NCBI GenBank assembly: GCA_028281605.1
Contig: JANQJO010000114.1
Location: 20,711-84,710, forward strand
Length of the DNA: 64,000 bases
Direction: 5' to 3'
From: Pseudomonadales bacterium
GTDB taxonomy: Bacteria; Pseudomonadota; Gammaproteobacteria; Pseudomonadales; JANQJO01
The notes under the pieces were generated by a model. It saw nothing but the letters and a program-made list of their open reading frames with translations. It was not told the origin of the DNA and ran no database searches. A program made the position numbers and the translations under genes. This document shows, piece after piece, positions 40,357 through 44,521 of this stretch; position 1 is the first letter of the stretch; every line of letters starts with the position of its first letter.

Positions 40357-40873
40357 TGTCATTACCGAAGGAAACTGTCGAACTAATTAAAAAGGAACTG
40401 TTAACATCAATGCTATCAACCATTAAAAATATTCTGGGTATGAAAAACATCATCTCTCACCCCTTATCAATTCGGAATTATTACAGCTACAGCGATTCAT
40501 ACTTCCATGGTACTGGGTTCAGGCCTTGTGGATTTACTTCGATTCGGAGACGGTGTATCCGAAGGAGGGCTTGCAGGCTGGGGAAAGGACGGATTAAGAT
40601 TACTTGGTATTGCTGGACCTGCAGGAAAAGGATTTCAAATATTGAAAAGCGCAAAACACACCAATATTGCAAAACTCATTGTTGATATCGGTGGCCCCCG
40701 GGTGTTCATGGGTTGCATCTACGAAGGCTGTTGTACAAGTAGGCCAAAAAGTAAATGGGTTTAATTCGTGCCTACCAAATTGCAAGCTACTCTCGATAGC
40801 AGGGTTGATTCCTATCTACCAGATTGCAAACCACACTCGATGGAGCATAACGTCCAACTCAGCGGGTAATTGA
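40356..40873 (+). pseudogene. multiply frameshifted toxin-like ORF (Gly-rich pre-toxin-like segment plus Cys/His-containing C-terminal fragment)
   Basis: Three overlapping partial ORFs in three frames (40356-40685, 40444-40764, 40667-40873) can be spliced conceptually. One junction lies at a GGCCCCCGGG run near 40690. Content includes LVDLLRFGDGVSEGGLAGWGKDGLRLLGIAGPAGKG, then PGCSWVASTKA...ANHTRW. Confidence 0.35.
40757..40798. repeat. 42-bp direct repeat, copy 1 (GGGTTTAATTCGTGCCTACCAAATTGCAAGCTACTCTCGATA); a degenerate third core copy lies at 40815-40843
   Basis: Read directly. 40/42 identical to 42158-42199. The core CTACCA[A/G]ATTGCAA occurs three times. The third copy is out of frame relative to the first, so the conservation is at the DNA level. 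Confidence 0.7.
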
Positions 40874-40920
40874 AACGCAGCGTACATTGATCCGCTGTAG
40901 TTTTTGTTAGACATTTTTCG

Positions 40921-41289
40921 TTAAATACTTTCACAAAGCTTTATATCTAACACTTCTTCCACAAAAAAGACAATTCCATCAGGATCAATTCCAAATAAGT
41001 TGATGTTGTATTTTTGTGCACGGCCCTTAAAACAAAAAAGCTTGTTATCTTTTTCTAGTGATGAATCTATTAATTGCTCAATATCTAGTTCAGTTGATCG
41101 AGGAATAATTGTGTTTTTTACCACCCTCTGAATTGAAGATTTTTCCACCTCCATGTGATAGCATTTTTCACAAGACAGCATTAAGTAACGCGCCTGTAAA
41201 GTTTGCTGCTCTCCCTTTAAATTTGATACGACAATTAAAACACCAACAATACAGCATAGAAATATTACTACAATTATTGACTTACTCAT
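40921..41289 (-). CDS. small membrane-anchored protein (candidate partner or immunity protein of the upstream gene)
   Basis: 122 aa. N-terminal TM helix IIVVIFLCCIVGVLIVV. Start overlaps the stop of the 240-aa gene by 4 nt. No motif recognised. Confidence 0.5.
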   Translation of the reverse strand: MSKSIIVVIFLCCIVGVLIVVSNLKGEQQTLQARYLMLSCEKCYHMEVEKSSIQRVVKNTIIPRSTELDIEQLIDSSLEKDNKLFCFKGRAQKYNINLFGIDPDGIVFFVEEVLDIKLCESI

Positions 41290-42008
41290 TTTGATACTTC
41301 CGGAAGAAGTTTTAATATATCCTGATGAGCTAGATATCCTTTCTGATTTGTTGTTTTAATAATATTGGCGTTGTGAATAATAACTCGTTTACCATGCCGA
41401 TAATCTTGTTGCGCTATAGTTGTTTTCTTCCCCTTTATGTTTGGGTTCGACTTATCAGTGTGTCCAATTACATACGCTCTAGTTTTTCCGGCTTCGTAAA
41501 GTTCTTTAGAAAATGTTTCTGCAAGAGTATCACCTGGTATATTACCTTTCGCGGTATTGCAGCCATGTATTTGTATTCTTGCATCTTCTGTAAAAACAGA
41601 AAAATTAATATTTGACACATATCTAGAGTCGCTGGAAAATTTATAAAACCCATCTTCCCAAGAAGAATAATATATAGATAGCATACCTTTTGCGACTAAC
41701 CCAGTCACTAGCCCACAATTTTCATTTTCTTTAACGGAAAAATTGAGTGAATAAGGTGTTCCATGGGACAATACATCAAATGATTTAACTGCGTTTGGTT
41801 TCACTGTGTTTATTTGTGCAACCATACTAGCAGAAGTTGATATCTTTATAAGTTTAATATCATCACTTAAGTTTAACAGCCTATAATCCTTCTCAACATT
41901 TCTTGCCGCCGCATAGAATGCACTATTGTGAGCTATACCGATTTGTCTTACAGAACCATTAGCTTTCGTCTCTCTTGTTCCTCCGTGAAATATAAATCTA
42001 ATTCCCAT
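41286..42008 (-). CDS. 240-aa protein with a His-Gly ... Gly-Cys dyad after hydrophobic strands (clan-CD/caspase-like or DUF4347-like arrangement)
   Basis: FDVL-SHG-TP and IQIH-GC-NTAKG each follow a hydrophobic beta-strand-like block. GGAGGAGAAA lies just upstream of the ATG. No signal peptide. Family assignment is tentative. Confidence 0.45.
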   Translation of the reverse strand: MGIRFIFHGGTRETKANGSVRQIGIAHNSAFYAAARNVEKDYRLLNLSDDIKLIKISTSASMVAQINTVKPNAVKSFDVLSHGTPYSLNFSVKENENCGLVTGLVAKGMLSIYYSSWEDGFYKFSSDSRYVSNINFSVFTEDARIQIHGCNTAKGNIPGDTLAETFSKELYEAGKTRAYVIGHTDKSNPNIKGKKTTIAQQDYRHGKRVIIHNANIIKTTNQKGYLAHQDILKLLPEVSK

Positions 42009-42157
42009 TTTCTCCTCCGTATGTTACTCATAGTAGTTGGTCAACGTACTTCCCATGACTTTTATGATTCCTCAAACATCGTCCCTTCAGGACTCTTTTC
42101 TGCGTCCTCACCACCGGCGGTTAAAAACCCGCCGGCTGTATGACACAACCCCTGTCG

Positions 42158-42199
42158 GGGTTTAATTCGTGCCTACCAAATTGCAAACTACTCTCAATA
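42158..42199. repeat. 42-bp direct repeat, copy 2
   Basis: GGGTTTAATTCGTGCCTACCAAATTGCAAACTACTCTCAATA, 1401 bp downstream of copy 1. The two copies bracket the two-gene cassette. Confidence 0.7.
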
Positions 42200-42385
42200 T
42201 CGTGACGCATATTTCTTCTAAGATTACTGACACAATCTACTGTTGCTCATTATGTTACAAAACTTTAAACTAGAAAAGCCATCTTTATTAACCCCAAATA
42301 GTCATTGACCTCAAATAGCCGCTAGCGCGAAACAGGCTAAATCCATTGAGAATAACAGTTTGTGTAAAATAGACTGGTTATCAAG

Positions 42386-44521
42386 CTATTGTGAAACAAT
42401 AGTCTGTTTTTGATTAACCACTGTTTGCAGATACTCTGTCAAAATTTTTCTTTCTGAATTATCTAAAGTTCTAAAGCGAGCTGGCGGCATAGCATGCAAA
42501 TGATCATAAGGTAAATTAATACGCTCCTGCGCAAGCATTAACGCTTCCACACTCATTTGATTGAGATTCACATTGAAATTAGCTCTAGAAATATCTTGAT
42601 CTAACACATCATTATGGCACTGCGTACAAGCTTGCGTCAAAATACCCAAACCATCTAGATTGGCTTTAACTTTAAATCCAATATCTCTAATTTCATCCTC
42701 TTTAAATATTTCTCGTATATCAGGTAGATCAACAATTTCACCGGCAATAAATGCTTTATAAGAAGCAGCCATTTGACCCAACTTCACCGGATCACTGACT
42801 TTAACATCGTGATAAGGCACCTGAATAATTTCTCCACGTACATTTCTGTCATAGAGTGCTAACCAATTTGCACTGACACCGGCTATCGTATTATCAGCAG
42901 GTTGGGCTGGATTACTTTCAGAAACTTCAGTCTCGATGGTCAATGAATCAAAACGGCCTTGTGTAGAATTACGATTAAATCCATTACCAAAACCCATTGC
43001 CAGTAAAAAACTTTCTAAACGTGCTGGATCCGATTGAGCGACCAATGAACCTGGAATTCCCCCATATTCTTCATTAGCATCATGAGCACTAAAATAGTCT
43101 TCAAGCAAGGCTTGACCACCGGCCCTATCATTTCTCATAAAACCTGTCCATGGATCGTTCAATTCCTGCATAAGCAACGTCTTTTGAGCATTAGGTCCAC
43201 CGGACTGATGGCACTGACGACAATCAACCAATGTATTTTTCAAATCTTCTTCATGATACAAAGTCCAAGAAACAAAGTTTTTCTCCACCGCTTCTGTAAG
43301 TAAATCTTTATTCGAGCACGTACCTGTTTCATTACAAGCTTGTTGAAAGTTTAATAAGTAAAACTGCAGGTCCTTATTATTTTTGGGATCATTGGGATTC
43401 TCTGAATCAAAGTGACCTGCAATGATTTCTACAAATTGCTCACCACGTACAAACCCCATTAATACAAACCCTTCCTCTTGTGCTCGATTACTAAATGAAT
43501 CAGAAATTTCCTCAACTGCACCAGAAACACTACACGAACTGGAAGCACTGCTAGACCCAGATGAGCTTGCAAAACTCGAAGAACTACAAGAGCCAGCAGG
43601 ACCAGAGACGCTACAAGAACTAGAAGCACTGGCAGATCCAGATGAGTTCGAAACACTGGCAGAGCTACTGCAAGAATTAGAAGATGCTACCGATTTTTTT
43701 TTAAATCTATTATTTGATGAAAATAAAATCACCCTGGGATTGATGGCATTAGTAGATCTCATAGCCAGAGAAGTTGAACGACCTGCCAAAACAAAATCGG
43801 GATTTCCCATCGTAGCATTAGCCTCATTAAAACTAAGACCCAATACATTCTGCAAATCTTTCAAACCGGTTATATTAGGTATATTTTGCCCACAAAAAGC
43901 TTGCGTTACTTTATTTTTAACACCCTGATTTACCATTCTATCACAAACAACTTTCAACTGTTGATCACCACTGAACAGCTGCTCCAGTGTAAACATATCA
44001 CGCTCTTTGGGAATATCGTCATTCAAAATAGTAACAGAGTGCTCAACAATCTCACCCACATCAACACCAGCAATTTTGTCTATCTTTATTGAAAAAGTTT
44101 CATCATTTTCATAAAAATCTTCTGCCATAAGAACAGCTGTAATAACAAACTCAGTACTACCCACCGGGATCGAAACCCTCTCTGAGGCCAATTCAAAATC
44201 TTTGCCTTGAACGGCTGTCTCAGCAAAAACAGAATAGCCCACAGCTACAACTTGATCCGTAGACCTTGAAAACTTGACAACAATCGGGTGCGACTGAGAA
44301 TCTTCTAAAACTTGTGAATTGTTCGCAGCAAAACTCACAGTCAGTGCTGGTAATTCCGGAACTGGGTCAGGCAGGTCATCAGGAGGTAAGCCGTTATCAA
44401 CATCTGGATCAGGTATAACATCTGTCGCTAAATCAGGGTTATAATAGCACCCAAAAACTCCGACCAAAAACAAATATACGTAAAATATCCTTTTTATTAT
44501 TTTATCAAACATACAAACCAT
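42386..44521 (-). CDS. lipoprotein with a Calx-beta domain, a Ser/Cys-rich linker and two CxxCH haem-c motifs
   Basis: Lipobox LVGVFG|C. Calx-beta-like block at aa 58-168 (VAVGYSV..ETAVQGKDFE...ETFSIKI...VTILNDD). CRQCH (aa 434-438, nt 43208-43222) and CTQCH (aa 632-636, nt 42614-42628). Confidence 0.6.
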   Translation of the reverse strand: MVCMFDKIIKRIFYVYLFLVGVFGCYYNPDLATDVIPDPDVDNGLPPDDLPDPVPELPALTVSFAANNSQVLEDSQSHPIVVKFSRSTDQVVAVGYSVFAETAVQGKDFELASERVSIPVGSTEFVITAVLMAEDFYENDETFSIKIDKIAGVDVGEIVEHSVTILNDDIPKERDMFTLEQLFSGDQQLKVVCDRMVNQGVKNKVTQAFCGQNIPNITGLKDLQNVLGLSFNEANATMGNPDFVLAGRSTSLAMRSTNAINPRVILFSSNNRFKKKSVASSNSCSSSASVSNSSGSASASSSCSVSGPAGSCSSSSFASSSGSSSASSSCSVSGAVEEISDSFSNRAQEEGFVLMGFVRGEQFVEIIAGHFDSENPNDPKNNKDLQFYLLNFQQACNETGTCSNKDLLTEAVEKNFVSWTLYHEEDLKNTLVDCRQCHQSGGPNAQKTLLMQELNDPWTGFMRNDRAGGQALLEDYFSAHDANEEYGGIPGSLVAQSDPARLESFLLAMGFGNGFNRNSTQGRFDSLTIETEVSESNPAQPADNTIAGVSANWLALYDRNVRGEIIQVPYHDVKVSDPVKLGQMAASYKAFIAGEIVDLPDIREIFKEDEIRDIGFKVKANLDGLGILTQACTQCHNDVLDQDISRANFNVNLNQMSVEALMLAQERINLPYDHLHAMPPARFRTLDNSERKILTEYLQTVVNQKQTIVSQ
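43520..43687 (-). repeat. in-frame imperfect tandem duplication encoding a Ser/Cys-rich low-complexity linker
   Basis: Two ~27-aa units, (N/G)SCSSS..SSSGS.SASSSCSVSG, at aa 279-334 of the 711-aa protein. Near-identical DNA strings gcactgc/gcagacccagatgag are visible. Confidence 0.6.

Follow-up and report, generated by a model that had tools for sequence, protein, structure and literature searches.

In Vibrio cholerae, the Aux3 type VI effector–immunity module is flanked by att direct repeats, persists as a shrunken element and still excises (PMC7721734). It has a P4-like integrase that is sometimes truncated, attB is present in naive strains, and both excision and integration were shown experimentally (PMC7721734). 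Here we analyzed a locus of comparable layout in a 64,000-nt stretch (the window, to which all positions refer) of contig JANQJO010000114.1 from a Pseudomonadales bacterium. At this locus, two 42-nt direct repeats bracket a two-gene toxin–immunity cassette. As with Aux3, an effector–immunity module lies in a gap of the core genome between short direct repeats (attL and attR in Aux3), and a second repeat pair lies in the flanks. The degraded form of Aux3, without most of its mobile machinery, likewise remains flanked by repeats. Unlike Aux3, the present islet is known from sequence alone, has no integrase that we found, contains a far smaller element (1.4 kb) and is nested in another repeat pair. 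What is expected of an integrative element, direct repeats at both ends with unrelated flanks on four sides, was found.

We tentatively favor, at less than even confidence, the reading that the 42-bp repeats (R) are an att-like junction duplication private to this lineage, left by Campbell-type insertion of a non-autonomous toxin–immunity element. The islet as a whole is a decayed type VI/polymorphic-toxin islet of a known kind.

Three other systems offer comparisons. Integron cassettes are also small, promoter-poor gene units bounded by repeats, with a circular intermediate postulated. They differ in that R lacks an imperfect inverted repeat or hairpin of the attC type, that there is no array, and that the relatives of the toxin elsewhere are not cassette-borne. 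No IntI gene was found among the 30 open reading frames (ORFs) of at least 187 aa in the window that were scanned with Pfam; not all shorter ORFs were scanned. In Streptococcus thermophilus, accretion of integrative and conjugative elements (ICEs) and cis-mobilizable elements (CIMEs) is site-specific and produces nested or tandem arrangements. CIMEs, which are non-autonomous and mobilized in trans, keep their att direct repeats after the integrase is lost, and a known ICE integrase is cognate to their att sites, whereas no cognate element is known for R. For V. cholerae, Kirchberger et al. in 2017 are said to have described incoming type VI secretion system (T6SS) effector–immunity pairs that truncate or displace a resident effector and leave remnants. 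The displacement reportedly proceeds via homologous flanks, with orphan immunity genes in the same orientation and no flanking direct repeats. The truncated or displaced resident effector is common to that process and to our locus; the flanking direct repeats are the difference.

Anatomy of the 42-nt repeats

The left repeat, R1, lies at 40757–40798 on the plus strand (GGGTTTAATTCGTGCCTACCAAATTGCAAGCTACTCTCGATA) and abuts the truncation point of an effector-gene fragment. The right repeat, R3 (42158–42199, plus strand), is identical to R1 at 40 of 42 positions, and the two copies start 1401 nt apart. Local alignment showed that the similarity has sharp edges at both ends of the 42 nt and that all four flanks are unrelated. 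The longest exact run common to R1 and R3 is 29 nt. The source contig (91 kb, NCBI, metagenome-assembled) and a 13.5-kb Logan contig from an independent assembly agree base for base across this region, being 100% identical over 13,470 nt. The preliminary description of this DNA, made by reading the sequence, had reported the repeat pair, its spacing and the 240-aa and 122-aa genes with leader and tail between the copies. Local alignment and the agreement of the two assemblies confirmed the pair, and the bracketed segment indeed includes a 149-nt leader and a 78-nt tail.

That description had also listed a degenerate third copy of the core, 44 nt past the first and out of frame with it. This held, and the copy extends further than stated. 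R' (40801–40842, plus strand) is a 42-nt tandem copy in register with R1 at a period of 44 nt, with 31 of 42 positions identical (74%). When a 19-nt core was searched with up to 3 mismatches, 3 occurrences were found in the window versus 0.07 expected from shuffled sequences, and none of 100 shuffles reached 3. A better-conserved 26-nt core is common to R1, R' and R3: CTACCARATTGCAARCYACWCTCGAT.

Where R1 and R3 disagree, R' has A30 in common with R3 and G39 in common with R1. R' therefore predates the R1/R3 duplication, and R1 and R3 have each gained one substitution since they separated. The unit boundaries of the R' and R3 duplications agree to within 2 nt, and the right edge of R3 corresponds to the unit boundary between R1 and R'. 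Since the unit was duplicated twice with the same boundaries, the sequence suggests that R is a defined site and not a random overlap. Two tandem copies (R1 and R') stand at one end of the cassette and a single copy (R3) at the other. No inverted terminal repeats were found inside the direct repeats, and Tandem Repeats Finder reported no tandem array.

A broken effector gene, an intact cassette and duplicated purD ends

Next to R1, a plus-strand ORF returned nothing by Pfam, and a word-indexed homology search matched only the ORF itself. An exhaustive HMMER search recovered 183 relatives, typically of 280–400 aa. A Cys, a His and an Asp are invariant in this family, which is non-polymorphic, with conservation along the full length. 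The AlphaFold2 model of one member (predicted local distance difference test score, pLDDT, 81.6) matched staphopain, the phytochelatin-synthase-like Alr0975 and other papain-fold enzymes; sequence matches were weak. The proteins have a helical N-terminal domain, and several end in LysM or PG_binding_1 domains. At two related loci (L126 and L127) the effector gene directly follows and overlaps hcp, with small ORFs next, so the family is predicted to consist of Hcp-linked type VI effectors. Papain-like cysteine protease effectors of the T6SS are represented by EvpQ, TsaP and Cpe1 (PMC12136450). The present family resembles them in its papain-fold Cys/His/Asp residues and its link to hcp, and differs in having no detectable sequence relationship to them, a helical N-terminal domain of its own and often a LysM or PG_binding_1 tail. 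It is probably an undescribed family of Hcp-dependent T6SS effectors, for which there is no Pfam or NCBIfam model.

With filters off, all six frames of 40300–42450 were searched with a profile of the effector family (47 members, 349 positions). The profile matched at positions 37–115 and, after one frameshift, at positions 113–133, and at nothing more. Profile positions 1–36 and 134–349 were absent from 40300–42450 in any frame. The matching segment (40462–40759, plus strand) is a pseudogene fragment with that one frameshift; the helix with the catalytic Cys is kept, and the His and the Asp are lost. The frameshift is an extra C in the five-C run at 40695–40699, and dropping one C restores …DIGGPGCSWVAS…; the extra base may reflect a true mutation or a sequencing error in the homopolymer. 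In the closest relative (L128), DNA homology runs through …GTA AAT GGG (40751–40759) and none lies beyond. The end of the effector homology and the left edge of R1 thus coincide within 3 nt, so R may mark the end of a foreign segment. Because the segment covers only profile positions 37–133 of 349 and homology stops at R1, the plus-strand ORF is best read as an internal fragment of a dead gene for an Hcp-linked papain-fold effector.

The preliminary description had placed the first repeat inside a toxin-like ORF. R1 does lie inside the mechanical ORF at 40667–40873; it lies outside recognizable coding sequence, as homology ends at 40753–40759. The proposal that the cassette had simply inserted into this ORF was not borne out: homology stops at the edge of R1, and the 216 missing profile positions are nowhere in 40300–42450. 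By its remaining sequence, the effector gene appears to have been truncated or replaced, not split. No effector part remains beyond R3 or elsewhere in the islet, which excludes a simple insertion with target duplication. A transposon target-site duplication was rejected, given the absence of effector positions 134–349 past R3 and the lack of inverted terminal repeats within the direct repeats. At 42 bp, the repeat is also far longer than known target-site duplications. The possibility that R is a decayed continuation of the effector in another frame was also rejected, as the six-frame profile search was empty past position 133 and the DNA of L128 diverges fully after AAT GGG. No remnant of an effector immunity gene was found in the right flank by tblastn. 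At the loci of cassette relatives there was no papain-family match; the effector and the cassette do not co-occur elsewhere. On the other side of the fragment, the left edge of the islet (40357–40443, 87 nt, GC content 0.32) has no homology to the effector family (profile positions 1–36 not detected).

The cassette consists of two overlapping minus-strand genes, which encode proteins of 240 aa (41286–42008) and 122 aa (40921–41289). The 240-aa protein has 76 homologues, mostly free-standing proteins of 231–242 aa, from Flavobacteriales, Agarilytica, Hahella, Cellvibrio, Microbulbifer and many metagenomes. Its AlphaFold2 model (pLDDT 92.7) had caspases, the cysteine protease domain of TcdB and gingipain as the best Foldseek matches; these were weak (E ~1e-3, template-modeling scores 0.31–0.40). 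H81 and C149 are invariant across the family, and the family-invariant residues are all intact in the present protein, for which a caspase-like (clan CD, His/Cys) fold is predicted. In one homologue (P0075), the toxin domain is placed after a canonical RHS core (alignment; TIGR03696). The Helicobacter cinaedi plasmid pHci1 has it as the C-terminal portion of a 461-aa protein within a Tae4-type T6SS effector array. This was the single, distant cassette match in the plasmid collection, in which the effector family had 0 matches. The toxin gene directly follows a PAAR gene at two loci (L107 and L110) and lies downstream of a VgrG gene at a third (L115).

Homologues of the 122-aa protein are encoded directly downstream of the toxin gene at no fewer than 14 related loci. 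Their identity is 29–57%, below that of the toxin. The conserved position and the lower identity are the usual signature of an immunity gene, and we therefore read the product as a putative immunity protein. A hydrophobic helix stands at its N terminus, and an ARYxMLxCExCxH motif is conserved. From these comparisons, the cassette would be an intact type VI/polymorphic-toxin effector–immunity pair, whose toxicity is predicted. Tox-Caspase is a class of polymorphic-toxin domains (Zhang et al. 2012, PMC3482391). According to its modeled structure, the 240-aa protein corresponds to this class and is a predicted toxin. As in polymorphic-toxin cassettes, a free-standing toxin gene precedes its immunity gene, the domain is found at the C termini of RHS-, PAAR- and VgrG-linked proteins as well, and the fold is of the caspase-like His/Cys type. 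Classical orphan cassettes lie downstream of a full-length toxin gene in the same orientation and recombine via the shared coding sequence of the toxin tip, whereas the present cassette is inverted relative to the neighboring effector fragment and its repeat lies in neither coding sequence. An orphan cassette acquired through a shared toxin tip was rejected as the origin: the effector family is non-polymorphic, R starts where homology ends, and the cassette is on the opposite strand.

Between the genes and the repeats lie the tail (40843–40920, minus strand, 78 nt 3' of the immunity gene, GC content 0.44) and the leader (42009–42157, minus strand, 149 nt, GC content 0.49), neither of which is conserved in cassette relatives. 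DNA similarity between the window and those relatives is limited to the two coding sequences (42011–40930). The cassette genes have a GC content of 0.32–0.35, versus 0.44–0.49 for leader, tail and effector fragment and 0.39 for the whole window. The leader contains two hairpins, at 42114–42135 (CCGGCGG-N8-CCGCCGG) and 42147–42162 (AACCCC-TGTC-GGGGTT), with folding z-scores of −3.2 and −3.5; the second reaches 5 nt into R3. The leader had no Rfam match and no similarity to the upstream regions of cassette relatives.

The islet lies between duplicated ends of purD. The present 3' end of purD (40324–40352, plus strand, encoding …DIGYKAIVN*) provides the left outer repeat, and its last 29 nt recur at 42367–42395 (plus strand; 25 of 29 positions identical). 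PurD homologues end in …DIGY/HRAIxRE…, and the right copy encodes, in frame, …GYQAIVKQ*, a plausible C terminus of PurD; it would be the displaced purD end. After this copy, a hairpin (42386–42402) and a T-run (to 42411) overlap the end of a convergent 711-aa gene. The right flank of the islet (42200–42366) is 167 nt of non-coding DNA with a GC content of 0.36 and no effector remnant. Integrase-mediated islands typically insert at the 3' end of a gene and bring along a gene-end copy of their own. In its sequence arrangement, the 2.04-kb islet appears to be such an insertion at the 3' end of purD, carrying its own gene-end copy. Because it lies between duplicated purD ends, we read it as the stump of an older integrative element whose recombinase is lost. 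The nested character of the locus was recognized earlier and stands, with the outer purD duplication (40324–40352/42367–42395) as the enclosing pair.

Origin of the repeats

The repeats had been proposed earlier to be recombination or protein-binding sites for cassette exchange, and we searched for them elsewhere. The core pattern, written with N at each position where R' differs, had 0 matches in 185,579 species genomes, JGI metagenome contigs and IMG/VR. In related loci totalling 1.5 Mb, no R-like sequence was recovered by blastn-short or by an nhmmer profile built from all three copies. Of the 23 related cassette loci whose flanks were usable, none had flanking direct repeats above the shuffled background (best upstream/downstream direct-match scores of 7–13 versus shuffle maxima of 11–15; the window itself scores 36). 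No tandem cassette array was present in 34 related loci. Relatives thus carry the cassette without repeats, and the motif was found nowhere else, the outcome that the preliminary description had itself named as refuting its proposal. Cassette exchange was not supported as a general mechanism by these observations. Because the 42-mer was found nowhere else and was lacking from the flanks of relatives, it is unfit for use as a cassette-boundary signature. A repeat that travels with the cassette was also rejected, as homology is confined to the coding sequences and the related loci have neither R nor flanking repeats.

R alone folds at −0.7 and −1.3 kcal/mol (z-scores +0.96 and −0.04), and the segment of tail, R' and R1 has z-scores of −0.29 and −1.27. 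An attC hairpin was rejected, R being unstructured. Rfam gave no credible match in 39500–43500, and a promoter and terminator scan placed nothing above background and nothing inside R. The R copies are now non-coding.

The mechanism that we favor was drawn from the anatomy of the locus and from analogy, in 64 kb of one genome. A DNA circle of ~1.4 kb may have carried leader, R, R', tail and genes in this circular order, that is, the 42-mer with R', a Tox-caspase-type effector gene and its immunity gene. A resident 42-mer would already have lain at the broken 3' end of the decayed gene for the Hcp-linked papain-fold effector. Circle and resident 42-mer would then have recombined Campbell-fashion, presumably by a site-specific and not a homologous recombinase, leaving a copy of the site on each side and four unrelated flanks. 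The whole would be nested in the remains of the older purD-targeting island. The capability that remains may be at most rare loss of the cassette by recombination between R1 and R3. We favor this event because it is the simplest single one that gives four unrelated flanks. It is consistent with a cassette that is intact, horizontally distributed and found in many unrelated contexts, with a GC content different from that of leader, tail and fragment. The purD 3'-end duplication around the islet is also as expected of an integrase-type insertion.

Several observations weigh against it. The core, the R-like sequences and the flanking repeats are missing from all the collections and related loci described above, and R has neither the dyad symmetry nor the hairpin that many core sites typically show. 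The Pfam scan of 30 window ORFs of at least 187 aa yielded no gene for a recombinase or transposase and no type VI gene. There is no close relative of the host, the closest PurD proteins being 63% identical in the 185,579 species genomes and 65–66% in 5.8 billion protein clusters. The mechanism also needs an extra assumption, namely a solitary resident R exactly at the effector breakpoint. The host is deeply branching and phylogenetically isolated, and its exact proteins were seen in one sample (SRR20820735).

Possible, although we hold it to be less probable, is that R is a passive terminal overlap. An over-length piece (1401 + 42 bp) of a circular or tandem donor would have been joined by microhomology, and the two-thirds of the effector gene toward its 3' end would have been replaced; the outcome would look alike if a local segment had been duplicated and had then decayed. 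The repeat pair indeed meets unrelated DNA at a breakpoint on each of its outer edges, and GGG is common to the last homologous codon of the effector and the start of R, like a 3-nt junction microhomology. A motif that is unique, unstructured and absent from every relative, with no recombinase gene nearby in the ORFs scanned, also suits a passive origin. However, this reading leaves unexplained that the overlap agrees with the older R' in both length and register and that the right edge of R3 coincides with the R1|R' boundary. Moreover, a circle of 1.4 kb that lacks a replication gene is no obvious choice of donor, and the 34 related loci contained no tandem cassette array. That R, R' and R3 are working protein-binding sites, either sites of an integron-like exchange recombinase or operators flanking the toxin–immunity operon, we regard as unlikely. 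That the discrete unit is present three times, that its 26-nt core is better conserved, that the copies stand two-and-one around the cassette and that R3 lies ~150 nt upstream of the toxin start codon would fit binding sites. Against them stand the lack of an attC-like hairpin, as the z-scores of R indicate, of any integrase found in the window and of any promoter placed in R, together with a core that is missing from three large collections and from the relatives. R1 and R3 have each drifted by one base, and R1 and R' lie downstream of the operon, facing a pseudogene. Somewhat more unlikely still is a new class of minimal toxin–immunity micro-cassette with R as its site. Such a unit of 1.4 kb, itself recombinase-less, would be moved in trans by a host enzyme via a ~42-bp unstructured site, with R and R' in tandem for docking. 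The broken effector would reflect an earlier cassette turnover, in an integron-like exchange of weapons that does without attC hairpins.

The remaining explanations question the duplication itself or its meaning. An assembly artifact or a chimera of co-existing strains, with the duplication not on one molecule, is highly improbable. The contig is metagenome-assembled and found in only one sample, but the two assemblies are identical over the 13,470 nt and genes are coherent across the junctions. The copies also differ at 2 positions, and their longest exact run of 29 nt is shorter than common assembly k-mers and thus makes no graph repeat. Coding constraint, acting on a repeated peptide (GFNSCLPNCKLLSI), and a dispersed family of the repetitive extragenic palindromic (REP) kind are effectively refuted. 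The two differences between R1 and R3 are 9 nt apart and synonymous in one frame on each strand, as constraint would have it, but a set of only two differences should show such synonymy in roughly a third of cases. R', offset by 44 nt, carries non-synonymous differences, and the protein-family homology stops before R. This agrees with the earlier argument that coding constraint could not explain the similarity; the region is also pseudogenic or non-coding. A REP-like family was rejected because R is not palindromic and its 3 copies in 64 kb all lie at this locus, with none elsewhere.

Use for annotation and neighboring features

The locus is a compact record of turnover of interbacterial weapon genes: an intact caspase-like pair stands beside the stump of a displaced papain-fold effector, within the remains of an integrative element at purD. 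It provides one further repeat-bounded type VI effector–immunity module, from a deeply branching, otherwise unsampled gammaproteobacterium. The finding is ordinary in kind, and its value is in guiding annotation more than in new biology. A pseudogene fragment is the proper annotation of the plus-strand ORF. The by-products that lend themselves better to reuse are the two unmodeled effector families and the insertion at the 3' end of purD. Both the caspase-like toxin family and the Hcp-linked papain-fold effector family deserve a model in Pfam or NCBIfam.

For the 240-aa toxin family, the sole match was a sub-threshold one to DUF4347; the family is widespread in free-standing form with a partner of 121–128 aa. 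At locus L003 (4773–5318), a cassette relative lies ~470 nt upstream of a resolvase-type serine recombinase gene, which hints that the toxin–immunity pair sometimes rides transposon-like elements. At locus L005 (4812–5498), the DNA upstream of another relative contains an (ACTGCTT)n microsatellite and tandem repeats of 160 nt, three to four in number.

The genes of the window neighborhood have housekeeping, flagellar and chemotaxis functions, and no tRNA or tmRNA was found in the window. The convergent 711-aa gene is Calx-beta-like; at 43513–43668 it contains two 75-nt copies that are 77% identical and 81 nt apart, in a Ser/Cys-rich low-complexity stretch. Three ORFs of 789, 752 and 515 aa (10526–12895, 13171–15429 and 61303–62850, respectively) had no Pfam match at E ≤ 1e-5. 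A 988-aa ORF on the minus strand (32406–35372) has an animal-haem-peroxidase domain (E 2.7e-69), which is unusual in a gammaproteobacterium.

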